From: Candidatus Saccharimonadota bacterium
GTDB taxonomy: Bacteria; Patescibacteriota; Saccharimonadia; Saccharimonadales; SZUA-47
Reading direction: 5' to 3'
DNA: 32,000 bases
NCBI GenBank assembly: GCA_017993025.1
Contig: JAGONL010000001.1
Span: 12,750 to 44,749, forward strand
Below, piece by piece: positions 2,447-32,000 of this stretch. Position 1 is the first letter of the stretch; every line of letters starts with the position of its first letter. Below the pieces are notes generated by a model. That model was given only the letters and a program-made list of their open reading frames with translations. It was not told the DNA's origin and did not search any database. The position numbers were made by a program, and so were the translations under genes.

Positions 2447-3586
2447 CTACAGAATTAACATGGCGTCGCCAAAAGAGTAGAACCTATACTTTTCAGCAAT
2501 TGCGTGGTCATAAATCCGTTTTAGTTCAGCCTCAGACCCCACAAAAGCCTCGACCATCAAAAGTAAACTTGTACCAGGTAGATGAAAGTTAGTAATCATA
2601 CTATTAACAGTCTTAAAGCTATACCCAGGCTGGATAAAAATATCCGTACTGCTCATCAAATCGCCAGACACAGCCCAGGATTCCAGTGTACGTACAGTTG
2701 TCGTACCGACCGCTGTTATGTGTTTTGCACTCAGTAGTTTATCAGCCACCCCAGGCTTTATCTCATACCATTCAGCATGCAGTTTTCCGGTCTCAAAGTT
2801 CACATCTGTCAAACTAGCGAAAGTGCCAAGCCCCACGTGTAATGTTACTTCCTCTACGTCATGTTCAGTTTTAACCTTTTCAAGTAATTGGTCTGTAAAA
2901 TGTAGCCCAGCAGTAGGCGCAGCTTTAGACCCCAGTGGTTTAGCATAAATCGTCTGGTATTCTTCGGCCAGTTTGTCGTTTTGCAGGCATACACTACATA
3001 CTACTCTTTCTGATTCAGGGGCACCTGAAAGTGACGAGATAGGTGTTTTATCTGACTGAGGCGATACTGAAGTATCGGTGATGGAGGAAAAACGACTAGA
3101 TTGTTGCTTTAGGTGTTCCTGAACTCGAGAGCAGGAGTGTGTGGGGTGTGCCCTAATGTAAGGTGGCAGGGGGATATGCTCAACGGCTAGCAATCGCTTA
3201 TCGTCATGTTGGATATTCAGTTTTAGCGTTCTAATTCCATCATCATCAATAGCAGTCGTCTCCACCGATAGCCATTTATTAATCTCAGACTTTTGGCCAA
3301 GTTTAAACTTACTTCCAGGCCTTATTAGCGCCCTAATGGTGTGAGTATCCAGCTTTTCCAGTACAAATATCTCTGTTTTGCCAGCGTCAAACAACCACCT
3401 ACAGTTTTCAACCTTAGAGTTATTAACAACTAATGTCGTATCTGGTTTCAAAAATTTAGGCAGTTCAGAAAAAACCGTATCAATTATAGTTTTATCAGCA
3501 CGTGAATATACCAGTAACCTAGCAGAATCGCGAGGGTGGGCAGGCTCCTGAGCAATCAGCTCCTTAGGCAATTCAAAATCAATCAT
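2447..3586 (-). CDS. queA: S-adenosylmethionine:tRNA ribosyltransferase-isomerase (QueA) with an internal insertion
   Basis: N-terminus FELPKELIAQEPAHPRDSARLLV. Also PLPPYI, YQTIYA, APTAGLHFT, VGTTTVRTLES, TNFHLPGTSLLLMV and YRFYSFGDAMLI, all collinear with E. coli QueA. Confidence 0.9.
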   Translation of the reverse strand: MIDFELPKELIAQEPAHPRDSARLLVYSRADKTIIDTVFSELPKFLKPDTTLVVNNSKVENCRWLFDAGKTEIFVLEKLDTHTIRALIRPGSKFKLGQKSEINKWLSVETTAIDDDGIRTLKLNIQHDDKRLLAVEHIPLPPYIRAHPTHSCSRVQEHLKQQSSRFSSITDTSVSPQSDKTPISSLSGAPESERVVCSVCLQNDKLAEEYQTIYAKPLGSKAAPTAGLHFTDQLLEKVKTEHDVEEVTLHVGLGTFASLTDVNFETGKLHAEWYEIKPGVADKLLSAKHITAVGTTTVRTLESWAVSGDLMSSTDIFIQPGYSFKTVNSMITNFHLPGTSLLLMVEAFVGSEAELKRIYDHAIAEKYRFYSFGDAMLIL

Positions 3587-6278: not shown

Positions 6279-7229
6279 TTATGATACCTGTGAATTAGCA
6301 GGCGGTAAGTTTATAGATTCTGGCGGTAGCTGTTTAATGATTCTTTGCAGTCGTGTGTATAGTCCGCCTTCATGACACAAATAGCTTCCGCTTTTATATA
6401 TATAAGTTGGAGATATGTAATCATACCCATCGCGTCCACCGGGATCTGTTAAGACCTTATTACTCCACGCAAAGACTTGTCCGTCACCAATCACCAGCGG
6501 TCTTGAGTAATGCCCTTCAGAGCCATTTATTTTCATATGGTCTGCATGTTGCTTATCGAGAGTTGTAGTATCTTTAGGTACGTCATTCACAGCTTTAGTT
6601 ACAACCCACTGCCCTAGTAAGTACGCATCTTTACTGACAGCAACTCGTTCGTCAACTTCTCTAAGCAGACCGTCAGTACATAAATATACTTTTTTTGTAT
6701 TTGTAGGGTCAAGGTCGATTGCACTGTTGTCATGTCTATAATTAGCAGTAACCACACTCGACATTCCGTTTCTTCCAAATTGGACGCCACCAAGTACCCT
6801 AGCTCCTAATAAATAACCCGATGGCGCAGGTACGGATCTTGCCTCCTCAAAAATTTTATTTCTTGTTAGCCCAAACCATCTACGCTCAGTAACTTGGAGT
6901 CTTTTTTCTTCACTGACTAGCGCTTTAGCTCCTGGTAACCCAGCACTTCGCATTGCATTTAGAAAATTAGCAATAAGATCAACTTCATCACCACTGAATA
7001 TTTCAGCTGGGTCGGTTCCTGAAAATAAGTGGTATTCATCAAGCCACTCCTGGTGGCAGCTAATTTTTGCCGCAGTGATTGTCTCTAAGTTCTGTCGAAT
7101 AGCCTCTTCTTCAGCAACACGCTTAGTCTCCGCTAATTGTCTCTCGGCTTCTTCTTGAGTAGGGTCAATTGGTGGGAGCAGTTGATTAGACATAGCTTGT
7201 GCTCTTAGCGCTTCGATAAAGTCTGCCAT
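6279..7229 (-). CDS. Hypothetical protein, paralog family Q (316 aa)
   Basis: Paralog of 7587-8564, with collinear N-terminal halves (FEALR.QA...DP.Q.EA.RQLAE, ITAAKI, YHLF.GT.PAEIFS, SAGLPGA.AL.SEEKRLQ, KKVYLC.DG.LREVD, LGQW.VTKAV). GAGG sits 8 nt before the ATG. It contains LGGVQF at residues 146-151. Confidence 0.7.
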   Translation of the reverse strand: MADFIEALRAQAMSNQLLPPIDPTQEEAERQLAETKRVAEEEAIRQNLETITAAKISCHQEWLDEYHLFSGTDPAEIFSGDEVDLIANFLNAMRSAGLPGAKALVSEEKRLQVTERRWFGLTRNKIFEEARSVPAPSGYLLGARVLGGVQFGRNGMSSVVTANYRHDNSAIDLDPTNTKKVYLCTDGLLREVDERVAVSKDAYLLGQWVVTKAVNDVPKDTTTLDKQHADHMKINGSEGHYSRPLVIGDGQVFAWSNKVLTDPGGRDGYDYISPTYIYKSGSYLCHEGGLYTRLQRIIKQLPPESINLPPANSQVS

Positions 7230-7586: not shown

Positions 7587-8564
7587 TTACTCGTGAGAAG
7601 TGGGTCTCTCAGCTGGTATTTTTATTGATTCTGGAGATAGCCCCTTAATGATTCTTAATAGTCTTGTATGTAGCCCTCCATCCTCGAAAGGTAAATAATC
7701 AGTATGAGTGATCTCAAATGTTGGACTTTCGTAGTGATATCCGTCTTGTTCTCCTGAGTTGCTCATATGTCTGTGTCCTTTACCGCATATTTGTCCATCA
7801 CCGAATATCAATGGATTAGTGTATGAACCTTTGATAACTGACACTCTATTATGATTTCTAACTTGTCGATTGAGACTCATTGTACCTTTAGGTACTTCAA
7901 GCACTGCCTTAGTTACGGCCCATTGACCAAGAAAGTAAGCTTCTCTATTAATAATTACGTTGTCATCGACTTCTCTAAGCATACCGTCAGCACACAAATA
8001 CACTTTCTTTATTTTTGTACTATCAAAAGAGCTGTATGATCCACTCTCTCCTTTTTGTTCTCTATATTGAACTGTACCAAGTTCAGCATCTTCTAGTCTA
8101 CTACCACCTAGCTCGACAGAAGCACCTGCTAATCTTACTCCAAGTAAGTACCCCAGCGTGACTGGCAGTGATCTGGTTTCATCAACTGTTATAGTTCTTG
8201 TCCTGCCGAACCTTTTTCGTTCAACATCTTGAAGTCTTTTTTCTTCGCTTGATAATGCAACTGCACCAGGCAATCCGGCTGAGTGCATAACTGGGAGAAA
8301 ATTCGCGAGTATTTTTAACTCTGTTTCCGAGAAAATTTCTGCGGGGTTAGTTCCTGGGAATAAGTGATAATCATTAAGCCACTTTCGGTAATCTCCGATT
8401 TTGGCTGCAGTAATAATTTTTAAATTCTGTTCCGCGATAGCTGCCTCGTTGGCATGCTGTACTTCTGCTAACTGCCTATCTGCCTCGACTTGTTGGGGAT
8501 CAACTGGCGGGGGTAGCGGGTTGGGTGTGGCTTGAACTCGTAACGCTTCAAAATAATCTACCAT
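7587..8564 (-). CDS. Hypothetical protein, paralog family Q (325 aa)
   Basis: Paralog of 6279-7229 with the same upstream promoter and SD block. Confidence 0.7.
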   Translation of the reverse strand: MVDYFEALRVQATPNPLPPPVDPQQVEADRQLAEVQHANEAAIAEQNLKIITAAKIGDYRKWLNDYHLFPGTNPAEIFSETELKILANFLPVMHSAGLPGAVALSSEEKRLQDVERKRFGRTRTITVDETRSLPVTLGYLLGVRLAGASVELGGSRLEDAELGTVQYREQKGESGSYSSFDSTKIKKVYLCADGMLREVDDNVIINREAYFLGQWAVTKAVLEVPKGTMSLNRQVRNHNRVSVIKGSYTNPLIFGDGQICGKGHRHMSNSGEQDGYHYESPTFEITHTDYLPFEDGGLHTRLLRIIKGLSPESIKIPAERPTSHE

Positions 8565-10600: not shown

Positions 10601-11281
10601 ATGGGAAGAAAAAATGCAAACGCCAAAAAAGGCGGTACCAAACAACAACAAAGTAAAACAAAAGGTTCGCCTCGCAGAAGACACAGCGAACATTACGAGT
10701 ACAATGTTTTGGGGGCAGGTCCAAAACCCAACGCTGAGTCCAGACGTGCACCACAGAATCAGCGCAGGAATCCACAAGCAACAAAATCAACTTGGCCTAG
10801 CATATTCCGAATACCACTTGATGAAGACGCGCGAGCAATTAACAGTTTTTTAAGAAGTACTGGTGGAAAATACAAAAGAAATCCTTATTGGGGCATAAGA
10901 TACACGCCAGTAATGCCTTCCGGCATTGAATTAATTTATAGCAAGTTTGACCGAGAAACTGCTGATACTCTAAAGGCAGAATACCTACGAGAGCACAGTC
11001 ATCAAATACCGTATGGTGTAAATTATCTATACCAACACGTTACTAAAACAGGTCAAATACAGTTGGGGGCTGACCCTACTGAGGAAACTAGACGATTGTT
11101 AGAATGGGATATTGAAGGCCTTTGGAATATTTTTGGAATTTCAGATCCCTACCCGCATAAAGGCCTAATAATCGGGAGATATCCAACGCTAGAATTATAC
11201 AATGACGCTAACACAAAGCTAACTAATACATTACTTCGTCAAGGCGGTGTTTTACTGACTTTTGGAGGAGTTCAGCTATAA
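10601..11281 (+). CDS. Cassette protein A1 (226 aa): basic disordered N-terminus plus a C-terminal GG-tail domain (...VLLTFGGVQL)
   Basis: Paralog of 11929-12615 (GIRY, IY.KFD, GQI...A.PT.ET, FGI.D, YNDA, RQGGVLLT.GGVQ). The N-terminus MGRKNANAKKGGTKQQQSKTKGSPRRRHSEH is Lys/Arg-rich. Confidence 0.75.
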   Translation: MGRKNANAKKGGTKQQQSKTKGSPRRRHSEHYEYNVLGAGPKPNAESRRAPQNQRRNPQATKSTWPSIFRIPLDEDARAINSFLRSTGGKYKRNPYWGIRYTPVMPSGIELIYSKFDRETADTLKAEYLREHSHQIPYGVNYLYQHVTKTGQIQLGADPTEETRRLLEWDIEGLWNIFGISDPYPHKGLIIGRYPTLELYNDANTKLTNTLLRQGGVLLTFGGVQL

Positions 11282-11302
11282 TATTAAACTTAAAAATTAA
11301 TA

Positions 11303-11331
11303 TTGTTCATATGTCTATAAGTTGATATAAT
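11303..11331 (+). promoter_or_regulatory. Promoter of cassette gene B1 (leaderless layout)
   Basis: TTGTTC (11303-11308), 17-nt spacer, TGaTATAAT (-10 at 11326-11331), then 8 nt to ATG 11340. Confidence 0.6.
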
Positions 11332-11339
11332 ATACTTTA

Positions 11340-11888
11340 ATGTCAAATTTACCTAGTCCTGAAGCCCTTAACTTCGACTCTGGACTTTATCGTCCGGCTG
11401 TCGCACACCACTACCTTGACGCCGGAATGGGCGAAGGATTAAGTAGTGGAGTTAATGAAAATGCCAGAATGCCCTTCATCTTAGACGGTAGTTTACGTGC
11501 AGCATTTAACAAGACTGTAGTCCCAGATAAATTAATAGATTCTCTCAATGATTTATGTAAAGATGCAAACAATATTTTTCCTTTCTATTGTGAATCTATA
11601 CGTCCAAAATTATCTAAAAATCGAAAATTTGTAATTCAAGCTTTGCCAAACGATGAGACCAAAGAACAAATAAGAATAACCTACGATATGGCTAACAAGG
11701 CAGCTGATGTTGCAAAAGTAGGCTTAAGAGCTCATCTACCAGGAAATATTGTGCTTGGATCGTTCGATGACCTAGATGATGCAGCAAAATTTGCTCAAAG
11801 AATTAGCGACAATTATTGCGGAGTTCGTAGCCTAGCACCTATAGTAACTTTAGGTGGACTTACCGCTAAATCCTTAATAATTCCATAA
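11340..11888 (+). CDS. Cassette protein B1 (182 aa) with a C-terminal GG-tail domain (...PIVTLGGLTAKSLIIP)
   Basis: Same position and MSN start as 12671-13246. It shares the strand-helix-strand-helix-strand(GG) C-terminal pattern with the other three cassette proteins. Confidence 0.7.
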   Translation: MSNLPSPEALNFDSGLYRPAVAHHYLDAGMGEGLSSGVNENARMPFILDGSLRAAFNKTVVPDKLIDSLNDLCKDANNIFPFYCESIRPKLSKNRKFVIQALPNDETKEQIRITYDMANKAADVAKVGLRAHLPGNIVLGSFDDLDDAAKFAQRISDNYCGVRSLAPIVTLGGLTAKSLIIP

Positions 11889-11928
11889 GCACTTTTAAAT
11901 TTTATAGCCGTTGATATACTAAATTATT
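11884..11928 (+). promoter_or_regulatory. Conserved promoter block of cassette gene A2
   Basis: TGaTATACT (-10 at 11915-11920), then 8 nt to ATG 11929. Near-identical copy of 10556-10600. Confidence 0.6.
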
Positions 11929-12615
11929 ATGGGAAGACATAACTTAAACATCGGAGGAGAAGAAGAACCGGAACGACCGCGACCGCGACTGCACAAAAAT
12001 CATCACGGTGATTTAAGAACAAGTCATAGAAAGCCTGCTCGATATCGTTTACTAACAAGTTTACTAAACCCAGATAATTCTGCTATCCAATCTGCAGATT
12101 CACATGGCTGCAACCCTGAACCTGTGCACACAAGTGCATACCGTGCACCAATCTCAAATAAACTAGTCACTATTGAAGACTTTTTGAAAGTCACGCAGGG
12201 AAGAGCGCCAAAAAGATTTCGCTCAGGTATTAGGTACCCTTCAATAGACACAGACTACATGAGGAAAATATATAATAAATTTGATTCAGATAAAGCGGAA
12301 GAATTACTTCAAAAATATATACAACAACACGCGGGAACCATAGATTATTCTGTCGTTGAATTGGGTGATTTTCAAGAAAATAAAGGACAAATATTAATGA
12401 GAGCCAAGCCTACTGATGAAACATTAAAAGCTCTAGAACTAGATAGTACAGATTTACTCAATACTTTTGGTATTGAAGATAATTTTACGTTCACAGGATT
12501 AAATATTGGCGCATTTTTGGGTATGAAAGCATACAATGATGCAGAACGTGAACTTTGCGAAATACTTGAAAGACAGGGTGGGGTGCTTCTAACACTTGGC
12601 GGCGTCCAAATATAA
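11929..12615 (+). CDS. Cassette protein A2 (228 aa): basic/Pro-His-rich N-terminus plus a C-terminal GG-tail domain (...VLLTLGGVQI)
   Basis: Paralog of 10601-11281; see that entry. Confidence 0.75.
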   Translation: MGRHNLNIGGEEEPERPRPRLHKNHHGDLRTSHRKPARYRLLTSLLNPDNSAIQSADSHGCNPEPVHTSAYRAPISNKLVTIEDFLKVTQGRAPKRFRSGIRYPSIDTDYMRKIYNKFDSDKAEELLQKYIQQHAGTIDYSVVELGDFQENKGQILMRAKPTDETLKALELDSTDLLNTFGIEDNFTFTGLNIGAFLGMKAYNDAERELCEILERQGGVLLTLGGVQI

Positions 12616-12633
12616 CAATTCTAAATATTAATA

Positions 12634-12662
12634 TTGCTTAATTGTCGATTTATAGTTATAGT
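12634..12662 (+). promoter_or_regulatory. Promoter of cassette gene B2 (leaderless layout)
   Basis: TTGCTT (12634-12639), 17-nt spacer, TATAGT (12657-12662), then 8 nt to ATG 12671. tatactttaatgtcaaattt is 20/20 identical to 11331-11350. Confidence 0.6.
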
Positions 12663-12670
12663 ATACTTTA

Positions 12671-13246
12671 ATGTCAAATTTTTTTACTTCTGACCAAATG
12701 CCAATTGAGCCAATTCACGGCGTAGAAACACCAGACTCAGGTTTTACCAGATATTCTATACACGCATTAATACGTCCGGCAATAGAAACAGCTTTTTTAG
12801 ACATGGCGCCTTCAGATTTTGATACTACCTCCACTTTTGGTGATTTACATATTGTTGCCGCTTTCAGAGGAACCGTGCTTCAGCTGCTGGATCGAGGACT
12901 TACTCTGGAAGACCTAGATCAAAAGTTAGATGATCTTGTTACTAAAACAGAAAACGATCGCATAAATTACTTCCCTAATGCTTTTGGTGTAAATGAAAAT
13001 AAAGGCGTGTTTACAGTACTAGCTAGTCCTGACCAGCTAACCAGAGCAAGAATTAAAGGTTCGACAAGAGGTGTGGATAGAATTATGGGCGGACAAGTAT
13101 CCCATAATGCTAAAAATTTCCCTTTAGCAAAGTTTCTCAGTAAGGAAGAAGCCGATACTTATTTTGTAAAAATTGCTAGACTTTATAACTTAGACATGAA
13201 GCCAGAAGGCATTCCGCTAGCAGTGTTCGGCGGAGTCCAACGCTAA
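12671..13246 (+). CDS. Cassette protein B2 (191 aa) with a C-terminal GG-tail domain (...PLAVFGGVQR)
   Basis: Positional paralog of 11340-11888. Its C-terminal FGGVQR matches the A-type tails. Confidence 0.7.
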   Translation: MSNFFTSDQMPIEPIHGVETPDSGFTRYSIHALIRPAIETAFLDMAPSDFDTTSTFGDLHIVAAFRGTVLQLLDRGLTLEDLDQKLDDLVTKTENDRINYFPNAFGVNENKGVFTVLASPDQLTRARIKGSTRGVDRIMGGQVSHNAKNFPLAKFLSKEEADTYFVKIARLYNLDMKPEGIPLAVFGGVQR

Positions 13247-20316: not shown

Positions 20317-20356
20317 ATAAACAAGGTCCGTCAAAAACTCCTAAATTATGTAGCTG

Positions 20357-20402
20357 ATACTGCCAGCAATTCTTCGGTTTTATTCTTGATGTTTTGCCTG
20401 TA
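20357..20402 (-). pseudogene. Fragment of an X-family gene 3' end (paralog of 24454-24993)
   Basis: atactgccagcaattcttcggttttattcttgatgttttgcctgt matches 24470-24512 at roughly 88 percent, with a 2-nt indel that shifts the frame. Weaker similarity continues to about 20455. The translated remnant is ..GKTSRIKPK.. versus ..AKTSRIKRR.. Confidence 0.6.
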
Positions 20403-20463
20403 GCCCAACCACACCTTTGCAAACTTAATAGTACTATCAGAGCGATTTCATCGAAAACAAAAT

Positions 20464-22854: not shown

Positions 22855-23565
22855 ATGCTCCCAAACGTCTTTGTCTATTTACTCAACACTCTTATTATTC
22901 AGCTCAGCATTATTGCTTTCTGTCTACCGTTTTTTGTTATTTATATGCGCTCTTCAAAGCACGCTACGGGACATAATATAAGCTGGCATATTCAAAATTT
23001 CTTTTCAAGCAAACAGGCCAACGCACTAATTTTCTGCTGGGCACTTGCAGAAGCCTTTATCTGGTTTGTTATACCAGAATTTTTACTGCTACTTATGGTT
23101 TTTATGCGGGTACGCCGCAAACGCCAGCTATTAACTTATGACATCCTCGGCACAGTCGCTGGTACAATATTGGCACTTAATCTTAATCTTTCAGATTCCG
23201 CCATTGAATCTCTTCCATACGTACAACAAAACATGATTACCCAGGCACATGTGTGGTTCACAAATATAGATGTTTGGGCATTACTGCACCAACCATTTTC
23301 TGGTGTGCCGTTTAAAGTTTTCAACCATGTCGCTCTTGATCATGACGTAAACATTTTCTTATACATCCTTCTTGCTGTTGTAGTTAGGGTAAGCCGTTAT
23401 GCACTATTTTACTTCTTATTAAAAGGTATCTATAGACATATACATAAATTTGTCTATAAAAACTATACGGCATTATTCATCATAGCTACAGCCATATTCG
23501 CAGTACTTCTATACGATGTATACCAAAGTTTCGGACCTGACTACGTTATAAGAACCGGCCTCTGA
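22855..23565 (+). CDS. Membrane protein, possibly DedA/YqaA (VTT-domain) like
   Basis: ALAEAFIWFVIPEFLLLL resembles the A.AE....P.P.E.LL box of YqaA/DedA proteins (recall only). Confidence 0.5.
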   Translation: MLPNVFVYLLNTLIIQLSIIAFCLPFFVIYMRSSKHATGHNISWHIQNFFSSKQANALIFCWALAEAFIWFVIPEFLLLLMVFMRVRRKRQLLTYDILGTVAGTILALNLNLSDSAIESLPYVQQNMITQAHVWFTNIDVWALLHQPFSGVPFKVFNHVALDHDVNIFLYILLAVVVRVSRYALFYFLLKGIYRHIHKFVYKNYTALFIIATAIFAVLLYDVYQSFGPDYVIRTGL

Positions 23566-23575
23566 AATACTGATT
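23563..23575 (+). repeat. Partial copy of the IR core (tgaaatactgatt)
   Basis: A 13-nt exact match to 24978-24990 inside IR-L, in the same orientation. It overlaps the stop codon of 22855-23565, at the left edge of the accessory block. Confidence 0.5.
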
Positions 23576-24307: not shown

Positions 24308-24457
24308 ATGAGCACATCAGAAATATTGAAATCAGTTGGCGGAACCCTAAAGCCCATGCCTAATGCCAAGATAACCAAAGAGGTTAGGGAATACCGGGCT
24401 GCATTTAAGCGTGGTGAAAAAATCCTAGCAGACCGCCAAAAGAAACAATCGCTTTAA
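24308..24457 (+). CDS. Small basic protein (49 aa), translationally coupled to the kinase
   Basis: ATG 24308 directly abuts the kinase stop (TAAATG). Translation: MSTSEILKSVGGTLKPMPNAKITKEVREYRAAFKRGEKILADRQKKQSL. It is absent from the ORF track because it is under 60 aa. Its stop overlaps the stop of the convergent gene. Confidence 0.45.
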   Translation: MSTSEILKSVGGTLKPMPNAKITKEVREYRAAFKRGEKILADRQKKQSL

Positions 24458-24993
24458 ACTATATACCCTATACTTCCAGCAATTCTTCTACGTTTTATCC
24501 TTGATGTTTTAGCTTGTTCAATTTCAAAATCACTAACAACTTCATCAATCCACGAACGCGGGCCACGCCGTTGTTGTCTAGAAACACTATGACCAATAGA
24601 TAGACTTCGTAGTCCTGTCCACATTGAACCGAAAACAACGGTGGCTTGTTCTGTCGCGGTGGCAATAAGATAATCACTGCCCACATCTCTATATGGACCG
24701 TGCTCAAGTACTGCAACTACTTCTTGGTCTGCAAGGGCTAATTGAGTATATAAATCGCCCAAAGTATAGATTCTAGGGTAAGTTTGACGTCTAAAGCTTG
24801 TTTGATTAATATTATAATCTCCGTCATAACCAGTTTGTTTATTTACAAAGTTGGCGCCTACAAAAGCTATTGGATTTGACCCATCTAGTCCAAGTAATTG
24901 ATTCATAGATTTAAGTATATTGGTTGAGCACGTGCAGGTGCAAGCATAAGGGTAAAGAGAATAGCCAAACCACCCCTTGAAATACTGATTCAT
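24454..24993 (-). CDS. Hypothetical protein, X family (179 aa; start uncertain)
   Basis: Uninterrupted ORF. The first 11 codons (MNQYFKGWFGY) lie inside the 43-bp inverted repeat and inside a tandem repeat unit, so the true start could be the internal Met at codon 30. Fragments of paralogs occur at 20357-20402 and 27475-27522. Confidence 0.55.
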   Translation of the reverse strand: MNQYFKGWFGYSLYPYACTCTCSTNILKSMNQLLGLDGSNPIAFVGANFVNKQTGYDGDYNINQTSFRRQTYPRIYTLGDLYTQLALADQEVVAVLEHGPYRDVGSDYLIATATEQATVVFGSMWTGLRSLSIGHSVSRQQRRGPRSWIDEVVSDFEIEQAKTSRIKRRRIAGSIGYIV

Positions 24994-25004
24994 GACAATC
25001 AGCC
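24962..25004. repeat. IR-L: left copy of the 43-bp perfect inverted repeat
   Basis: tagccaaaccaccccttgaaatactgattcatgacaatcagcc is the exact reverse complement of 27464-27506. Confidence 0.95.
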
Positions 25005-25131
25005 CGCAGTAGCCCCTGTAGCCAAACTAGCCCCTGTAATACTGATTCAAGACAATCATCCATCCTTTTATTTGTAGCTAGGTCAGCCTCTGCAAACTCT
25101 TAAAGACAATCAGAGCCTGGTCGAGTAAAGC
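24962..25131. repeat. Three tandem ~57-bp units (first is IR-L; second and third degenerate)
   Basis: Units start with tagccaaac (24962), tagccaaac (25019) and tagctaggt (25075). Each contains gacaatca(g), at 24994, 25051 and 25105. Unit 2 is about 85 percent identical to unit 1 over its first 41 nt; unit 3 is about 60 percent. Confidence 0.7.
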
Positions 25132-25246
25132 CCTGAGCTAAGTCAAAAGTACTCAGTTATTAAACTCACTTTTGACCGCTTGCGTCCTCAGGGCGCGACT
25201 AGTCTCTGGTTAGTTTGTCTTTAAAGATGTTTCTGCAGACAGGCTG
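25084..25246. repeat. 163-nt long imperfect hairpin / palindrome
   Basis: Nested pairs: cagcct.ctgca.aac (25084-) / gtttctgcagacaggctg (-25246); ttaaagacaa / ttgtctttaa; gccctgag (25130-25137) / ctcagggc (25187-25194); gtcaaaagt (25142-25150) / acttttgac (25168-25176). The apical loop is 17 nt. Confidence 0.65.
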
Positions 25247-25258
25247 CGGGGCGTTTTG

Positions 25259-25316
25259 CATACTTTTGCACCTGTAGGGAAAAGTATGACTGGGTCTAAG
25301 GGCAGGTAACGCCCTT
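25259..25316 (-). other. Conserved hairpin pair A/B, left-arm copy (candidate structured leader or protein-binding module)
   Basis: On the minus strand: hairpin A is AAGGGC-gttacct-GCCCTT and hairpin B is CATACTTTT-ccctacaggtgc-AAAAGTATG. A homologous pair with compensatory stem changes lies at 27269-27325. Confidence 0.55.
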
Positions 25317-25352
25317 TGATTGCGCTTATAGTCGCTTACTAAATTATTTTAT

Positions 25353-26081
25353 TTAAAAAAACCGTCTATTCCAAGAATTTCCCGTCGCCTGCAATCGCCC
25401 ACCATGCACCAGCTTTTGCAAATACCCAGACGTTAGTTTTTCAGACAACCCAACACTTTTAGCTATTTCATGTACAGATATTTGTGGTTTGCCTCTCACA
25501 ATTTTCTCTATTTCACTCATCCGCTCATTCATCCGCGCAGTGCGGCTTCTGTTTGCCTGTGCCTGCGCCGTACCTATATGCTCTCTAGCCCAAAGTAGCC
25601 TTGCTGCGTTTATTTCCTCCGCCGTTAGTTCTAATACTTTTTGCGGAATATCCTTAAGGTACTTTGGGTCATGCACCGCCGGCACTACTACTGGTGTCGT
25701 TGGTGGGATTTCCACCACAGGTAGTGTACTTTCAACCTTCGATTCCGAACCCGCATCATCTTCTACCTTCGTACTTCTATCTTCGGTCTTATCAACTGGC
25801 TCGTCTTTTACTGGGGGCTTTGGAGGTTCGGGAGCTGGTACAGGTTCTTCTACTATTGGTTCTGGCGTGGGCTGTGGTGGTTCGATAGTTGGTTGCGGTA
25901 CTATTTCAGGTTCTGGGGTCGGTGCAGGGGTTGGGGTTGGGGGTGGCTCAGGAGCGGGGTCAACCGGCGGCGGAGGTGTCTCTTCGACTACAGGTTCTTC
26001 GACTTTCGACTCCGATCCCGCCGACTCTTCAACCTTAGACTCTGTGACTTTCGACTCTGTTGCTACCGGCTCGTCTTGCAT
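25353..26081 (-). CDS. Pro/Glu-rich protein with a C-terminal winged-HTH-like domain (242 aa)
   Basis: The N-terminal two thirds are low complexity (SKVEE repeats, PAPEPPPTPTPAPTPEPE). The C-terminus ISVHEIAKSVGLSEKLTSGYLQKLVHGGRLQATG looks like a wHTH recognition unit. TATAAT (26093-26088, minus strand) lies 6 nt before the ATG. Confidence 0.65.
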   Translation of the reverse strand: MQDEPVATESKVTESKVEESAGSESKVEEPVVEETPPPPVDPAPEPPPTPTPAPTPEPEIVPQPTIEPPQPTPEPIVEEPVPAPEPPKPPVKDEPVDKTEDRSTKVEDDAGSESKVESTLPVVEIPPTTPVVVPAVHDPKYLKDIPQKVLELTAEEINAARLLWAREHIGTAQAQANRSRTARMNERMSEIEKIVRGKPQISVHEIAKSVGLSEKLTSGYLQKLVHGGRLQATGNSWNRRFF

Positions 26082-26139
26082 AAGCGTATTATATATTATT
26101 TTTGAAATCCAGATTTAGAAAATTTAAATGTTCAAAAAA

Positions 26140-26207
26140 CGTGAATTTGAAGTACTTTTGCATTATATTCACGGTATATTGACATTTTAGCGTGAATTTA
26201 TTATACT
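26140..26207 (+). promoter_or_regulatory. fic promoter overlapped by CGTGAAT operator-like repeats
   Basis: TTGACA (26179-26184), 17-nt spacer, TATACT (26202-26207), then 6 nt to ATG 26214. cgtgaat occurs at 26140-26146 and 26191-26197 (the latter inside the spacer), and its inverted partner attcacg at 26167-26173. Confidence 0.6.
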
Positions 26208-26213
26208 TAAGCT

Positions 26214-27092
26214 ATGATAAACAATAATGACCAGGCGCACATCAAAGCACTCAAAAAAGAATATGAGTCACTTATTGATGGGAAAGAATCCTTATTAAAA
26301 ATACTTAAAGAGACTGAGTTACCCGAGCTTGTTTATAACTCAAATGCCATAGAGAATTCTACACTCACACTCAAAGAAACCGAAAAAATCCTGCTTGAAC
26401 AAGAGGTAATGCGCGACGTATCAGTTCGAGAACTTTTTGAGGCAAAGAATCTTGCTCGTGTACTAGATTATTTGGAATCAAAACCTAAACTAGAACTTTC
26501 TGCAGAGAATATACTTCTACTGCATAAAATGCTAATTGGTGGTATTGACGACGCTATAGCAGGTAGACTCAGAAAAGAGCATGAGTATGTTAGGGTAGGA
26601 AATCATATCGCTCCAGCACCAGAACATGTAGAGCAACTTTTAAACAATCTAATCGATAATTTTAATAGTAACCACGATTTATACTACTTGGATAATATTG
26701 CATATTTTCATGTTGAGTTCGAACGAATTCATCCTTTCTGTGACGGTAACGGGCGTATAGGTAGAGTTCTTATAAATTTACAGTTAGCATCCTTAGGATA
26801 TCCTCCATTAATAATCCGCAATAAGGGCAAACACAGTAATTATTATCCAGTATTTCAAGAATATACAGACAGGGGTGTTTACAGCGGTATGTCTGATCTG
26901 CTGGTACTAGCACTTTCTGAGTCATTACATAAGAGATTGGCGTACATGAAAGGGCTAAATATTATTACTTTGTCAGAATTTTCTAAGCAGAATAATCTTG
27001 CATTAAATGGGCAGTTAAACTCCGCTAAACGGCAGACAATACCGGCATTCAGAGAAAAAGGTGTCTGGAAAATTGGTATCACTCTAACATAA
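26214..27092 (+). CDS. fic: Fic-domain protein (class II, with an N-terminal inhibitory helix)
   Basis: The Fic core motif is HPFCDGNGRIGR. The N-terminal SNAIEN fits the (S/T)xxxE(G/N) auto-inhibition motif. Confidence 0.85.
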   Translation: MINNNDQAHIKALKKEYESLIDGKESLLKILKETELPELVYNSNAIENSTLTLKETEKILLEQEVMRDVSVRELFEAKNLARVLDYLESKPKLELSAENILLLHKMLIGGIDDAIAGRLRKEHEYVRVGNHIAPAPEHVEQLLNNLIDNFNSNHDLYYLDNIAYFHVEFERIHPFCDGNGRIGRVLINLQLASLGYPPLIIRNKGKHSNYYPVFQEYTDRGVYSGMSDLLVLALSESLHKRLAYMKGLNIITLSEFSKQNNLALNGQLNSAKRQTIPAFREKGVWKIGITLT

Positions 27093-27196
27093 AAAAATGG
27101 TCAATAAAATTTAAAGAACCTGACTTGTGTAATCCAACACTGCCGAGGTCCTTATGAGGCTATTATATCTGAGGATATAGGTAATTTCAAGATGGC

Positions 27197-27217
27197 GAAA
27201 AGGACTGCTGTCCTTTT
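27197..27217 (+). terminator. Hairpin terminator after fic (A-tract/T-tract, possibly bidirectional)
   Basis: aaaaggac (27198-27205), loop tgct, gtcctttt (27210-27217). Confidence 0.5.
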
Positions 27218-27268
27218 AATCCTGCTTTAATACAATTTATTTTTTTAGATATTTTGGTTGTTTGGTTT

Positions 27269-27325
27269 GTGGCTGTTTCGGCGCCACACCCCCGACTATC
27301 TTTTCCCAACAGGTGCAAAAGATAG
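27269..27325 (+). other. Conserved hairpin pair A/B, right-arm copy
   Basis: Hairpin A is GTGGC-tgtttcggc-GCCAC (27269-27287). Hairpin B is CTATCTTTT-cccaacaggtgc-AAAAGATAG (27296-27325). It is followed by caaaagccccgcaccctgt, as in the left arm. Confidence 0.55.
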
Positions 27326-27463
27326 CAAAAGCCCCGCACCCTGTTGAATATACATAACTCATGACAAATACCACCCACTTCTGCGTGGCAAGAACAACAA
27401 GCGTCCAATAAGCAATTTAAAAGTTATATGCTTTTGGATTAGCTTGCCACTTGATTCAGAAGT

Positions 27464-27506
27464 GGCTGATTGTCATGAATCAGTATTTCAAGGGGTGGTT
27501 TGGCTA
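27464..27506. repeat. IR-R: right copy of the 43-bp perfect inverted repeat
   Basis: ggctgattgtcatgaatcagtatttcaaggggtggtttggcta is the reverse complement of 24962-25004. Confidence 0.95.
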
Positions 27507-27522
27507 CAATAAATATCTGTAA
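27475..27522 (+). pseudogene. Truncated X-family 5' end (MNQYFKGWFGYNKYL*)
   Basis: The ATG and the first 10 codons are identical to those of 24454-24993. A stop follows after 15 codons, once the repeat ends. Confidence 0.6.
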
Positions 27523-27560
27523 ATGTAGGAAATATCACCAAACAGGTTTAATATTTAATT

Positions 27561-28220
27561 ATGAAAATGTCCGAGAAACCAAAAGACTTACGGCCAAGGG
27601 AAAAGTTGCAGAAAAAGGGCGCTCAGTCTTTATCCGACCTCGAGCTATTACAAGCACTTATTGGTAGTGGAAACAAGCAAGCCGATGTTAGCAAAATTGC
27701 CCAAAGCGTGAAAAAGCTACTTCAAAAACACGGTGCAGACATTTCATACAAGCAACTTACAGAAGTAACTGGCATGGGTGAAGCGAAAACTACGGAAATA
27801 TTAGCTGCCTTTGAATTATCAAAAAGATATTTAATTGACAGCGAGGCGCCAATAATTGACTCACCCGAAAAAGTCGCAGAACAACTATCTGACATCCGAG
27901 ACAAGAAGCAAGAATACTTTGTATGTTTGACTCTGGACGGTGCTAACAGGCTTATCGCAAAACGTGTAATAACAATAGGTACGCTAAACTCTAGCCTTGT
28001 CCACCCGCGTGAAGTCTTTGCAGATGCCATAACCGACCGCGCCGCAAGCATAATAGTCGCCCACAACCACCCCAGCGGCACTTTAAGCCCGTCTGAAGCG
28101 GACCGGAATATTACTGTTAAACTTCATGAATCAGCAAAACTACTTGGAATAAATCTTACGGACCACATAATCATCACAAAAACGGAATACTACAGTTTTA
28201 CAGATGACAACAAGCTGTAA
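27561..28220 (+). CDS. radC: RadC-like JAB/MPN-domain protein (UPF0758)
   Basis: N-terminal LRPREKL...LSDLELLQALIGSG, a helix-hairpin-helix-like segment, and the C-terminal JAB motif HNHPSG...PSEADRNIT. Confidence 0.85.
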   Translation: MKMSEKPKDLRPREKLQKKGAQSLSDLELLQALIGSGNKQADVSKIAQSVKKLLQKHGADISYKQLTEVTGMGEAKTTEILAAFELSKRYLIDSEAPIIDSPEKVAEQLSDIRDKKQEYFVCLTLDGANRLIAKRVITIGTLNSSLVHPREVFADAITDRAASIIVAHNHPSGTLSPSEADRNITVKLHESAKLLGINLTDHIIITKTEYYSFTDDNKL

Positions 28221-28258: not shown

Positions 28259-29944
28259 ATGGATAATCCTAAAAATCAGGCTGGCTTAATTTGGAATATT
28301 GCCGATATCCTACGTGGGGGTTGGAAGCAACACGAATATCAAGATGTTATTTTACCGTTAGTTGTGCTTAAGCGTCTAGATAACGTGTTAGCTACAAATA
28401 AACAAAAAGTATTACAAACATACAACCAAATGCATGGCACCATGAGCGACGAGTCATTGGTACACTTTTTGGAAAAAGAAGCTGGCTACAAATTCTACAA
28501 TACGAGTCCGTATGACTTCAAAAAGCTACTGGACGATTCAGAGGGTATTTATGCCAACTTTATCAACTATCTAGACGGTTTCAGCCCTAATGTACGAGAT
28601 ATCGTCACGAAGTTCGAATTTCAAAAGCAATTAAATAAACTCAAAAGCGGCAAGATGCTGCACCTTGTGCTTAAAGAGCTAGACAAAGTAGACCTGCGAA
28701 CTGAGATAGTAAATAACCACGATATGGGCTATATTTTTGAAGAACTTATCCGTAAGTTCAATGAACAATCGAATGAGACTGCCGGTGAACACTACACGCC
28801 GCGCGAAGTTATACGCCTAATGGTCCGTCTGTTACTTGAACCAGATGCGGATCGTATTAAAGGCGAAAGTAAGATCATTGAAATGTATGACCCTGCTTGC
28901 GGTACAGGTGGTATGCTTACGATTGGCAAGGAGTATATTCAGGATAAGATAAACCCAGACGCCGAGGTCTTTCTATATGGCCAAGAGCTAAACCCTCAGA
29001 CGTTTGCAATAGCGAAATCAGACATCCTTATCAAAGGAGAAGATGCCAACCGTATTAAGGGTGGTAGCGGCGAACATGCCGAAGATAGCACTCTTAGTAA
29101 CGACCAGTTCTACGACAAGACATTTGACTATGTTATCGCTAATCCACCTTACGGCGTTGACTGGAAAAAAGATAAAGACGCAGTTGAGGCCGAAGCTGCT
29201 CGTGGAGATGCGGGTCGCTTTCCGGCCGGAACTCCCGCTGTTAGTGATGGTCAAATGCTCTTTTTGCAGCATATGATCAGTAAGATGCGACCAAAACACG
29301 AAGGTGGTGGGCGCGTAGCTGTGGTACATAACGGTTCCCCATTGTTTACTGGTGCGGCAGGGAGTGGTCCAAGTAATATTCGTAAATGGTTGCTTGAAAA
29401 TGATTACCTTGAAGCTATTATCGGTTTACCGACCAACATGTTCTACAACACGGGCATCGCAACATACATCTGGGTCCTGACAAACCGAAAGATTGATGAT
29501 CGTAAGGGCAAAGTACAACTTATAGACGGCAGTGAAATTTTTCATAAGCTACGCAAAAACCTAGGTGACAAGAATAAAGAACTAACACTGGATGATATTG
29601 ACGAAATTTATACGTTATATGAAAACTTTCATCAATCAAAACGAAGCAAGATTTTCAATAATGAGGACTTTGGCTATACGCAAATTACTATAACGTGGGA
29701 TAAAGAAAAAGACACCGAGAATGTACCACTGGGAGAAGACATAAATGAATACTTTAAGCGCGAGGTGCTCCCGCATGTACCGCATTCCAAAATGGATAGA
29801 AAGAAGGACAAGATTGGCTATGAAATACCATTTAATCGCTACTTCTACGACTATAAACCACCGCGTAGTCTCGACGACATCGATGATGACCTCCAGAAAG
29901 TCACCAAAGAAATTCTTGACCTTTTGAATGAGGTAACAGAGTAA
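28259..29944 (+). CDS. hsdM: Type I restriction-modification system, methyltransferase subunit
   Basis: N-terminal HsdM-type helix (LIWNIADILRGGWKQHEYQDVILPLVVLKRLD), AdoMet motif DPACGTGGML and catalytic NPPYG. AAGGAG lies upstream of the ATG. Confidence 0.9.
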   Translation: MDNPKNQAGLIWNIADILRGGWKQHEYQDVILPLVVLKRLDNVLATNKQKVLQTYNQMHGTMSDESLVHFLEKEAGYKFYNTSPYDFKKLLDDSEGIYANFINYLDGFSPNVRDIVTKFEFQKQLNKLKSGKMLHLVLKELDKVDLRTEIVNNHDMGYIFEELIRKFNEQSNETAGEHYTPREVIRLMVRLLLEPDADRIKGESKIIEMYDPACGTGGMLTIGKEYIQDKINPDAEVFLYGQELNPQTFAIAKSDILIKGEDANRIKGGSGEHAEDSTLSNDQFYDKTFDYVIANPPYGVDWKKDKDAVEAEAARGDAGRFPAGTPAVSDGQMLFLQHMISKMRPKHEGGGRVAVVHNGSPLFTGAAGSGPSNIRKWLLENDYLEAIIGLPTNMFYNTGIATYIWVLTNRKIDDRKGKVQLIDGSEIFHKLRKNLGDKNKELTLDDIDEIYTLYENFHQSKRSKIFNNEDFGYTQITITWDKEKDTENVPLGEDINEYFKREVLPHVPHSKMDRKKDKIGYEIPFNRYFYDYKPPRSLDDIDDDLQKVTKEILDLLNEVTE

Positions 29945-31221
29945 TGCAAACATACCAGAAAATGAAAGATTCTGGTGTTGCATGGCTGGGTGACATCCCG
30001 TCAGAATGGGATCAGAAACAAGCCAGATACATCTTCAAGCAAACAAAGGACTCTGTGGGCGAAGATCCGAGTAAATATGAGCTATTGTCACTAACTTTAA
30101 GGGGTATTATCCCAAGAAGTCAGGTCGATGGCGGCAAGAACCCTGAAAACTATAGCGCCTATCAGATAGTTCGTGAAAACGACTTGGTAATGTGCCTTTT
30201 TGATTATGACGTAACACCAAGAACCGTCGGACTAGCTACGTCTACAGGGATGGTCACTGGTGCATATACAAACTTACGGCCACTGAACGGTATATCAACA
30301 CGCTATTTCAATTATTTTTTTCTAGCCCTTGATACAACAAAAGAGCTCCTTCATTTATGTACTGGTCTACGAAACGGGATTTCGAAACAGACGTTTTTTA
30401 GTCTTAACCTGCCAGTCCCAGAGTATGAGACTCAAGAAATTATTGCAGACTATCTTGATGAAGAGACCGCAAAAATTGATGACTTAATTTCCAAGCAAGA
30501 ACATTTACTTAAACTTATCGAAGAAAAAAAGAAAGCAACAATCAATTGGGCAGTCACAAAAGGTATCAACCCGACAGTTGAGCTTGCGTCTTCGGGCGTA
30601 ACATGGATTGGCCAAATGCCTGAACATTGGCAAATCAAACAGATTAAACACATATCGCCAGTCAAGAGAGGTGCTTCACCGAGGCCAATAGAGGACCCTA
30701 AGTATTTCGATAAAAACGGTGAATTTAACTGGGTCCGAATTGCTGATGTGACTCGATCAGGGAAATACTTGTTAAGCACACCTCAAAAATTATCAATTCT
30801 AGGGGCTTCGCTTAGTGTTAAACAATATCCTGGAGACATTTTTGTCAGTATTGCTGCTAGTGTCGGTAAGCCAATGATTACCAAGATTCAATGTTGCATC
30901 CATGATGGTTTTGTATATTTCCCCTATATTGACGAAAAGATGATAGAAAGAGAGTTCTTATACTATATTTTTGATGCCGGACAATGCTATCTGGGGTTAG
31001 GTAAGATGGGAACTCAACTAAACTTGAACACCGAAACAATTGGTTCTATCAAGATTGCAATCCCTCCTCTTGACGAACAGCTTGAAATTGTTGAGTGGAT
31101 TCGAAGCTATGAAAAAGAATATGGAAAGTTGAAGGCTCTTGCCGATAAGCAAGTCGTATTATTGAAAGAGCGTCGAATGAGCCTTGTTTCAAATGCTGTG
31201 ACCGGAAAGGTTAGAGTGTGA
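29944..31221 (+). CDS. hsdS: Type I restriction-modification system, specificity subunit (two target-recognition domains)
   Basis: The start overlaps the hsdM stop (TAATG). Two TRD halves are each followed by a conserved helical spacer: LDEETAKIDDLISKQEHLLKLIEEKK and LDEQLEIVEWIRSYEKEYGKLKALADKQVVLLKERR. Confidence 0.85.
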   Translation: MQTYQKMKDSGVAWLGDIPSEWDQKQARYIFKQTKDSVGEDPSKYELLSLTLRGIIPRSQVDGGKNPENYSAYQIVRENDLVMCLFDYDVTPRTVGLATSTGMVTGAYTNLRPLNGISTRYFNYFFLALDTTKELLHLCTGLRNGISKQTFFSLNLPVPEYETQEIIADYLDEETAKIDDLISKQEHLLKLIEEKKKATINWAVTKGINPTVELASSGVTWIGQMPEHWQIKQIKHISPVKRGASPRPIEDPKYFDKNGEFNWVRIADVTRSGKYLLSTPQKLSILGASLSVKQYPGDIFVSIAASVGKPMITKIQCCIHDGFVYFPYIDEKMIEREFLYYIFDAGQCYLGLGKMGTQLNLNTETIGSIKIAIPPLDEQLEIVEWIRSYEKEYGKLKALADKQVVLLKERRMSLVSNAVTGKVRV

Positions 31222-32000
31222 AATTTAAGCCTATTGCCAAACGCTACCAATTCGATGATGTGCTGTCTATGACTATTGAGTCTCACTTAAAAGAGCCGAT
31301 TGCTAATTGGATTTATGCAGTGCTAAAAAGAAAGCAAGCTCTTGTAGAACCAGACGGTATATACAGAAATTATCCATATATAACTACTCAGCTCAAGGAG
31401 ATTCTTCATGTAAATTTAAGAGAAGTGTATCCCCAGAAATGGGGTTCCTTCATTGAATTCGTATTGAGCGATAATGAGAGGACGCTGGTAATACTACAGT
31501 GGTGTCTGAATTATTTTGCGCGTAGCGAAGAAGCTAATGATCTTGAGTGGGCCTTGAGTAATGGAGGTTCTGCTTACGCTGTTGAAAAAGTAAACAAGGA
31601 TGCTTCCGAGTATGTTGAAGGTGTCTATGATTTAGTTGAGCGAGTCCCAGAACCAGTGAAAGCAATGGCTAAAGAGGCACTAAGTAACAGCGAACAACTT
31701 TTGGAAGGTTGGCGTGCCTGCTATGGTAAGAATCCAAATTATAAAGAAACAGTGCAGCAATCCCAAAACGTTCTAGAAGAATTACTAAGAGATAACTACC
31801 TGCCGTCAGATAAAAAAGCTCAACTTGGAAAACTCATCAAAGATATAAGAGCCGGCAAGACATTGTCGTACAAAGGCTCGGATGTCGTCAAGCAACCAAA
31901 TACACTTCTTGAATTGATACAGAATATCCCCGAATACCGTGGCATGCATACTGCCGGGACAGGTAAAAACCCTACGAAACAACAAGCTGAATACATACTT
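31218..32000 (+). CDS. Hypothetical protein embedded after hsdS (partial, runs off the window)
   Basis: The frame is open from GTG 31218, which overlaps the hsdS stop as GTGA, to the window end (261 codons). The first in-frame ATG is at 31269. Translation begins VKFKPIAKRYQFDDVLSMTIESHLKEPIANWIYAVLKRK... It is absent from the ORF track because it has no stop in the window. No motif recognised. Confidence 0.6.
   Translation, partial: MKFKPIAKRYQFDDVLSMTIESHLKEPIANWIYAVLKRKQALVEPDGIYRNYPYITTQLKEILHVNLREVYPQKWGSFIEFVLSDNERTLVILQWCLNYFARSEEANDLEWALSNGGSAYAVEKVNKDASEYVEGVYDLVERVPEPVKAMAKEALSNSEQLLEGWRACYGKNPNYKETVQQSQNVLEELLRDNYLPSDKKAQLGKLIKDIRAGKTLSYKGSDVVKQPNTLLELIQNIPEYRGMHTAGTGKNPTKQQAEYIL

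Follow-up and report, generated by a model that had tools for sequence, protein, structure and literature searches.

What is the origin of a perfect inverted repeat that encloses two genes and faces, on one side, a restriction-modification (R-M) operon? The question is raised by a 32,000-nucleotide (nt) stretch of DNA, here called the window, from Candidatus Saccharimonadota bacterium (assembly GCA_017993025.1, contig JAGONL010000001.1, positions 12,750–44,749). A sequence-only reading of the window had recorded a 43-bp perfect inverted repeat around a gene for a winged helix-turn-helix (wHTH) protein and a Fic gene, and had offered three explanations: an invertible segment, a foldback mobile element and a head-to-head duplication of the 5′ region of gene X, which lies on the left. 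The repeat itself is confirmed: 24962–25004 and 27464–27506 are exact reverse complements over 43 nt (100%), spaced 2459 nt apart, and a 26-nt core of the 43-mer is present at exactly two places in the window, whereas 100 shuffles give an expectation of 0.00. The best explanation, to which we assign a probability of roughly two in three, is that the repeat consists of the terminal modules of two paralogous structured non-coding elements, which point outwards and flank the wHTH gene (together with Fic here), and that it is neither a switch nor a transposon.

Architecture of the structured elements

Each 43-mer is the terminal module, referred to below as the tip, of a structured non-coding element of 250–390 nt. 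The element is laid out as a GC-rich hairpin (P1), a hairpin with a conserved 12-nt loop (P2) and a rod of ~170 nt, at whose base the tip supplies the 3′ strand. Two copies point away from each other around the wHTH and Fic genes. Their parts are listed below; the orientation of the left element is given as Block 1, a 78-nt segment (25243–25320), towards the tip. Contigs of related genomes are denoted by L numbers.

24962–25340, minus strand: left element, with P1, P2, a rod of ~165 nt (25084–25246) and three tip copies
24962–25004, minus strand: left perfect 43-mer, the outermost of the three tandem tip copies in the left element
25019–25061, minus strand: second tandem tip copy, degenerate (86% identity), 57 nt from the outer copy
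25074–25117, minus strand: innermost tip copy, degenerate, forming the 3′ strand of the left rod base
25259–25288, minus strand: left P2 hairpin, CAUACUUUU-CCCUACAGGUGC-AAAAGUAUG
27262–27506, plus strand: right element, with P1, P2, a rod (27330–27505) and the tip as rod base; minimum free energy (MFE) z-score −5.9
27296–27325, plus strand: right P2 hairpin, CUAUCUUUU-CCCAACAGGUGC-AAAAGAUAG, its stem differing from the left one by compensatory changes
27464–27506, plus strand: right perfect 43-mer, the 3′ strand of the right rod base, with its partner strand at 27339–27368

The P2 loop common to both arms reads CC(C/A)(U/A)ACAGGUGC, and the rod apex forms a second conserved block, in which ..GGA(A/C)GCAAGCGGUC is followed by a variable hairpin and then by GACU... 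Block 1, within which the left P2 lies, is 97% identical to its counterpart in L021, a contig of another species. The MFE folds of the left arm, of L030 and of L049 have z-scores of −2.6, −4.4 and −7.35, respectively; the last belongs to a region upstream of radC that is very different in sequence and adopts the same fold of P1, P2, rod and terminal hairpin. Longer homologous arms inside the perfect ends, as described by the sequence-only reading, are present about where it placed them, but their sequence similarity is significant in one ~70-nt block only (left 25214–25284 versus right 27300–27368; local score 66 versus 18.8 ± 2.3 for shuffles). Mean column identity over the whole arms is 67% in a MAFFT alignment, and outside that block the homology of the arms lies in their architecture and not in their sequence.

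The tip contains a dyad, CTGATT-GTCATG-AATCAG, that is, CTGATT-N6-AATCAG, whose spacer occurs in the variants gtcatg, gtcttg, ggaact and agaact. In the left element the tip forms an array of three tandem copies with a period of 57 nt. The motif GGCTACAG was considered as a genome-wide uptake or Chi-like sequence and rejected, as it occurs six times against ~3 expected.

Covariation

A structured non-coding RNA is generally recognized by a conserved structure that is maintained through compensatory changes, and this is what P2, the rod and the apical hairpin display. At pair 44/71 of P2, five copies have AU, four have UA and one has CG; the covariation score of P2 was reached by none of 500 shuffles, and 95% of its cells pair, versus 40–56% in slid registers. 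Compensatory double changes affect 16 of the 77 rod pairs among three paralogs of a single genome and, in the apical hairpin, six of nine pairs across eight copies, both window arms included. Judged from these alignments, the structure is under selection, and the element most likely acts as a stable structured RNA.

This structure has no counterpart in the collections searched. Rfam 15 covariance models, which include riboswitches, ribozymes, 6S, SRP, group I/II introns, HEARO and IS605-associated RNAs, gave no match at E ≤ 1 in 24400–27700; the element is not a tRNA or tmRNA; no similarity was found in viral, plasmid and phage collections; and a literature search returned nothing relevant. 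The element is a previously undescribed structured family without an Rfam match. Several known classes of structured element were also compared with it. A retron non-coding RNA would have a reverse transcriptase next to it, but no such domain is found in the window or beside the other copies. An integron attC site would have RYYYAAC and GTTRRRY core sites at its hairpin base and an IntI integrase; reading of the right rod base gives GTTGAAT (5′) and ATTTCAA (3′), which have the wrong polarity and match imperfectly; the left arm carries neither core site and no integrase is present. A type III (ToxIN-like) toxin–antitoxin system would have nearly identical tandem RNA repeats just upstream of a ToxN-family toxin; here the tandem tips are only 86% alike and X belongs to no Pfam, NCBIfam or PADLOC family.

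Distribution of the element family

The family spans several Saccharibacteria genomes, on at least seven contigs other than the window. When species-representative genomes were scanned for the P2 loop motif, 16 matches were obtained, seven of them genuine, and four of these lie on separate contigs of one metagenome-assembled genome (MAG). By our own calculation ~4 matches would be expected by chance for 19 specified bases in 596 Gb, which the non-genuine matches fit. Additional copies were found in L021, in L040 and, as a degenerate fifth copy of the same MAG, in L032. A profile search of the DNA examined finds exactly two copies in the window and, in each of the sister strains L001 and L011, also recovers the right-hand copy in its inverted orientation. 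In total the family is sampled from ~15 copies, its taxon sampling being bounded by exact-pattern scans.

One genomic setting recurs: the element lies upstream of radC in four lineages (the window, L044–L047, L048/L049 and L032). In other genomes, at most loci but not all, the Block 1 side adjoins housekeeping genes (histidine kinase, pterin dehydratase, NUDIX) and the tip side adjoins conflict-type genes (CdiA-C, DUF5677, an AbiEii-like ATPase, or radC with R-M). In L032 (1377–6716), radC lies together with genes for a MutH/Sau3AI-like endonuclease, a C5 DNA methylase and a NERD protein between two convergent elements, the second of which is degenerate. A role as cis-acting leader of the downstream gene is unlikely, given that the gene faced by the element is convergent in three of ten copies and that X and radC have promoter-like sequences of their own.

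The identity of the terminal module varies across the family. A different dyad module, GTGCAAATACATAATTTGC, ends the element in L027, L032 and L048/L049 (e.g. L048 28–46) and is kept even in the degenerate L032 copy.

Several of these observations weigh against the proposed explanation. A tip of the 43-mer type is known only from the window's species, L021 and L040, and the elements of other lineages terminate in different modules. The radC gene of another species (L050–L054) has no element upstream, and the accessory character of the tip side is a qualitative pattern only, three of ten copies facing a convergent gene. The strand indicators conflict: the antisense strand folds better in 10/10 copies and has the lower z-score in 8/10, while a G·U pair kept in 7/8 copies favours the sense strand. 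The conserved structure may, moreover, be that of an RNA or of the DNA itself.

Strain comparison and probable exchange at the tip

In the sister strains L001 and L011, an identity of 99.5% to the window extends from 14.5 kb to 25839 and ends in the part of the wHTH gene that encodes the N-terminal half; their right arms are only ~78% identical to that of the window. L011 has a perfect tip of 34 nt and carries a smaller, wHTH-only version of the inverted-repeat unit; past ...GGGGTG it continues into an SNF2/PLD–methylase–Eco57I operon, and the window into radC-hsdMS. Short-read contigs of many samples stop inside the tip and imply right-hand repeats of 43, ~39 and 34 nt. The tip-to-radC junction of the window recurs in L044–L047, whose radC is 87% identical, and is thereby verified independently; the tip there is a different variant that resembles the innermost left copy (25074–25117; 86% in the case of L044). 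In L015 the left array is shorter by one 57-nt unit. The left flank is identical in all strains.

The right arm of the window is a mosaic. Its P1, rod and apex match the right arms of the sister strains at 0.82–0.87, whereas its P2 with linker (0.90) and its tip (1.00, 43/43) match the window's own left arm. We propose that patchy gene conversion, in short tracts exchanged between the two inverted elements, maintains the 43/43 identity, atop sequence constraint on the tip. Such constraint is suggested because in L021 the tip is identical at 33/33 positions and Block 1 at 97%, while the DNA of X is only 74% identical. Conversion is an inference and not a proof because the segments are short and baseline identity is already high, at ~0.55–0.7, which counts against it; for the tip alone, conversion and pure purifying selection cannot be separated.

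Partial tip copies occur further to the left:

23555–23575, minus strand: tip half-site remnant AATCAGTATTTCAGAGGCCGG, the first 13 nt exact, with only the right half of the dyad kept
20342–20420, minus strand: deleted ‘tip-X’ module, in which a remnant of the 3′ part of the tip, GGTGTGGTTGGGCTACAGG, is fused to a copy of the end of X

The half-site overlaps the stop codon of a 236-amino-acid (aa) membrane-protein open reading frame (ORF) and, together with the left tips, brackets X, p49 (a 49-aa ORF) and zeta207 (a zeta-like 207-aa ORF). The X-end copy corresponds to the last 56 nt of X at 82% identity and lies between the sortase and cdsA genes. Homology of the zeta-p49-X group with the L050 neighbourhood is unsupported.

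Because tip copies are found in tandem and as remnants, and strain-specific DNA begins inside the right tip, the tip appears to be a recombination-prone junction at which flanking accessory DNA has been exchanged. The sequence-only reading had taken perfect tips beside diverged arms as a sign of conversion or recombination exactly at the tips; this is supported, in that it fits the mosaic right arm and the tandem, half-site and strain-variable tips.

These same observations may be read differently, with the tip, whose inverted arms enclose a 6-bp spacer, as an att-like core at the end of a chromosomal RNA gene. A site-specific integrase encoded elsewhere would target this core in the way that integrases use the ends of tRNA and tmRNA genes. 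Tandem and half-site copies would then be scars of serial integration, and the identical left and right tips would derive from related islands. The layout of the dyad, its spacer variants, the half-site that retains the right half only, the direct tip copies around X-p49-zeta207 (partial copies at 23555 and 20400), the onset of strain-specific islands inside the right tip and the accessory genes on the tip side all accord with such a target. However, no recombinase or integrase was found in the window or beside the ~12 element copies examined, among them the L011 island over ~9 kb; the junction has no fixed position, falling at 34, ~39 or 43 nt; and plsY and cdsA, which lie between the two remnants, would be atypical island cargo. 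We regard integration of this kind as unlikely. Since no site-specific recombinase lies near any copy, exchange at the tip dyad of the structured elements would more probably have proceeded by homologous or illegitimate recombination.

Gene X, the outward promoters and the question of a switch

The genes that the repeat faces are:

24454–24906, minus strand: gene X as conserved, 150 aa, starting at Met30
27561–28220, plus strand: radC, a widely conserved Saccharibacteria gene, with hsdM and then hsdS downstream

The sequence-only reading had noted an outward-facing ATG followed by MNQYFKGWFGY in both copies of the repeat. It is indeed present in both, on the left in frame with a 179-aa ORF and on the right with a stop after 15 codons, but it is not coding. 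Depending on the tip variant, the ORF that starts at this ATG has 7, 15, 17 or 36 codons or is fused to X, and codon changes across the variants are 10 nonsynonymous versus 2 synonymous. A mini-ORF or leader peptide was therefore rejected on grounds of variable length, mostly nonsynonymous change and, on reading, no Shine-Dalgarno sequence. As the homologs of X are all 149–150 aa long and align from Met30, and L021 has an in-frame TAA seven codons upstream of the start, comparison of the sequences places the start of X at Met30 and not at the tip ATG. X has no sequence match in Pfam, NCBIfam, PADLOC or the PDB; its AlphaFold2 model has a pLDDT of 68, and a Foldseek search of the model against the PDB gave nothing (best E = 0.05, TM < 0.3).

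Both flanking genes have promoter-like sequences outside the repeat. That of X, TTGCAC-N18-TATACT (24914–24943), begins 18 nt beyond the left tip, stops 7 nt short of Met30 and is conserved in L021. That of radC, TAGGAA-N17-TAATAT (27526–27554), lies 19 nt outside the right tip, ends 6 nt before the ATG and is conserved in L032, L044 and L048. The tip itself was rejected as a promoter, no acceptable −10 element being readable in either direction.

Inversion would not swap promoters, because those of X and radC lie outside the repeat. This speaks against the proposal that the repeat delimits an invertible segment exchanging the upstream regions of its neighbours, and an invertible switch is unlikely. 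Perfect inverted repeats with a recombinase-like dyad are what a recombinase encoded elsewhere would need in order to flip 25005–27463 through the 43-bp tips and alter the DNA upstream of X and of radC with its R-M genes, and the resemblance of the strains' right tips to different left tandem copies could result from a past two-sided exchange. Nevertheless, no invertase or other recombinase domain is present in the window ORFs; the promoter-like sequences of X and radC are outside the segment; and all six other contigs that cover the left junction carry, like the window, the left-type arm next to X, with the proviso that consensus assemblies would hide a minority isoform. In this form we consider the switch very improbable. 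A scan of Joint Genome Institute (JGI) metagenome contigs for the inverted junction, as an exact 57-nt pattern, gave no matches and has little power, the collection being without this organism; a degenerate tip-core scan of the same contigs recovered only L040 and missed the known JGI contig L011, so that it provides no denominator.

The spacing of tips and promoters also invites a regulatory explanation, in which the wHTH protein would bind the tip dyad as an operator and co-regulate the outward X and radC promoters. The wHTH gene lies between the two elements in 3/3 strains seen, by reading of the sequence 18 nt separate the left tip from the −35-like hexamer of X and 19 nt the right tip from that of radC, and dyads of this kind are bound by HTH dimers. 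The tip-to-promoter spacing is, however, not conserved in L048 and L032; L042 encodes a wHTH homolog without an adjacent element; no wHTH homolog occurs near other copies of the element, so that the protein was also rejected as an obligate partner; and 300 nt of covarying structure would be left unexplained. Operator function of the tips seems improbable.

The mobile-element explanation

The second proposal, a mobile element of foldback or composite type in which 43-bp terminal inverted repeats would enclose the wHTH gene (and Fic) as cargo, draws on the perfection of these repeats, on the smaller L011 version with 34-bp repeats and wHTH only, and on a weak Tc3-type HTH match in the L011 protein (E = 0.0012, below the Pfam cut-off). 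It is contradicted by the following observations. As the sequence-only reading had itself observed, the flanks, aagagaa and caataaa, show no target-site duplication, and no recombinase or transposase domain is found in the window ORFs scanned. The left flank is constant in every strain, only weak sub-threshold HTH matches bear on a transposase, and no viral, plasmid or phage collection yields a match. Compared with insertion sequences, miniature inverted-repeat elements and foldback elements, the paired unit occurs only at this locus; elsewhere its arms are independent elements, single or differently oriented. We consider a mobile element of this type extremely improbable.

The remaining proposal, a head-to-head duplication, comes closest of the three. 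Taken together with conversion at the tips it is correct in essence, but what has been duplicated is a structured non-coding element, not the 5′ region of X; the element also occurs singly beside unrelated genes in other genomes. In the mechanism that we favour, two paralogous structured elements would flank the wHTH gene, their tips supplying the inverted repeat.

Enclosed and neighbouring genes

The genes between the elements, and those of the R-M operon, are as follows:

25353–26081, minus strand: Pro-rich protein with a C-terminal winged HTH, of a tiny family; weak HTH_24 match (0.0028), below the Pfam cut-off
26214–27092, plus strand: class II Fic (PF02661, 1.5e-21); PADLOC PDC-S04/SoFic, a candidate defence family
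28259–29944, plus strand: hsdM, downstream of radC
29944–31221, plus strand: hsdS, downstream of hsdM

The enclosed pair is as the sequence-only reading described it, a Pro-rich wHTH protein and a class II Fic, the wHTH match remaining sub-threshold. The wHTH protein measures 242, 234 or 206 aa across strains, and its Pro/Glu-rich, repetitive N-terminal half (25600–26081) varies in length between them. Class II Fic proteins combine the core HxFx(D/E)GNGRxxR with an N-terminal inhibitory (S/T)xxxE(G/N) motif; the translation reads the inhibitory motif SNAIEN and the core HPFCDGNGRIGR in the same chain. As the Fic block (26103–27197) is present in the window's strain and absent in L001 and L011, it represents an insertion/deletion polymorphism. 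A terminator-like hairpin, AAAAGGACTGCTGTCCTTTT (27191–27212), lies between Fic and the right element and is kept in L001 despite the absence of Fic. The promoter-like sequence of Fic, TTGACA-17-TATACT (26179–26207), is flanked by CGTGAAT...ATTCACG and by direct CGTGAATTT repeats (26140–26208) in an operator-like arrangement. Look-ups of Fic and wHTH returned only short contigs, none crossing the tips.

The arrangement of radC followed by type I R-M is widely conserved in Saccharibacteria (L044, L048, L050–L054), and R-M alleles differ between strains with the same RadC (L050 versus L051). No hsdR is seen within the window, and look-ups of its RadC and HsdM gave no matching record. After hsdS, an ORF of at least 244 aa without a Pfam or PADLOC family (31269–32000, plus strand) runs off the window end.

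Elsewhere in the window, two adjacent paralogous ORFs of 316 and 325 aa (6279–7229 and 7587–8564, minus strand) have similar N-termini, MADFIEALRAQA and MVDYFEALRVQA, and no Pfam family. A two-gene module is tandemly duplicated at 10601–13246 (226 aa + 182 aa, then 228 aa + 191 aa); its larger proteins end in ...GGVLLT(F/L)GGVQ, and only the last ORF has a Pfam match (DUF1828). A queA-like ORF (2447–3586, minus strand; Queuosine_synth, 1.5e-92) encodes 379 aa against a 322-position profile and seemingly contains an internal insertion of ~55 aa.

Significance and comparison with known systems

The result is deflationary in that the inverted repeat is the mark neither of a transposon nor of a switch for phase variation of the R-M operon. 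It has nevertheless exposed a covariation-supported structured element of several hundred nucleotides without an Rfam match. Large conserved non-coding structures are few and, to our knowledge, little is known of non-coding RNA in Saccharibacteria and other bacteria of the candidate phyla radiation. The element lies at a border of conserved and strain-variable defence genes, one copy stands by radC in four lineages and the terminal module bears signs of repeated exchange; because these features come together, it offers a concrete handle on the turnover of defence islands in reduced genomes.

A bolder proposal, which we put forward only tentatively, is that the arms constitute a new Saccharibacteria family of structured RNAs (~250–400 nt, with P1, P2, rod and terminal dyad), one member of which is anciently linked to radC, and that the terminal module is an integrase-free hot spot where defence and conflict islands were inserted, swapped and homogenised. 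The islands concerned would be type I and II R-M, SNF2/PLD, Fic, CdiA-C and zeta-like genes. If true, this would amount to tRNA-like anchoring by a new RNA class in naturally competent episymbionts with reduced genomes.

Among known systems, the intergenic repeats ERIC/IRU, REP/BIME, the Neisseria Correia elements and the pneumococcal BOX/RUP elements are similarly multi-copy and form long imperfect hairpins, often just 3′ of genes, and may adjoin variable regions. The present element differs from them in its low copy number (2 to 5 or more per genome), in copies that diverge strongly yet keep their pairing by compensatory changes, one of them syntenic with radC across lineages, and in that no target duplications or terminal-repeat transposase sites are seen. 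Since pairing is kept by compensatory change and synteny with radC extends across lineages, vertical inheritance under structural selection would account for it better than recent transposition.

Invertons and shufflons, such as fimS, the Bacteroides invertible promoters and the R64 shufflon, likewise place inverted repeats around a segment near surface or defence genes. In those systems an invertase is encoded nearby, the repeats are shorter (roughly 9–30 bp) and the segment usually contains a promoter or alternative ends of coding sequences. The present repeat lacks an invertase, has the promoters on its outer sides and is seen in only one orientation.

Another likeness is offered by the tRNA and tmRNA genes that anchor genomic islands. 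In both cases variable accessory DNA adjoins one side of a conserved, structured RNA-like gene, the island borders carry partial direct copies of the end of that gene, and the junction contains a dyad. In contrast to these anchors, the element is not a tRNA or tmRNA, has no associated integrase and shows no fixed junction position. The ‘minimal mobile elements’ of Neisseria, in which transformation and homologous recombination exchange the cassettes that lie between conserved flanks, resemble it in another respect: different defence cassettes occupy the same slot across strains of a naturally transformable lineage, without dedicated recombinases. Exchange by transformation is putative in the present case, and the conserved flank is a structured non-coding repeat instead of a housekeeping gene pair.

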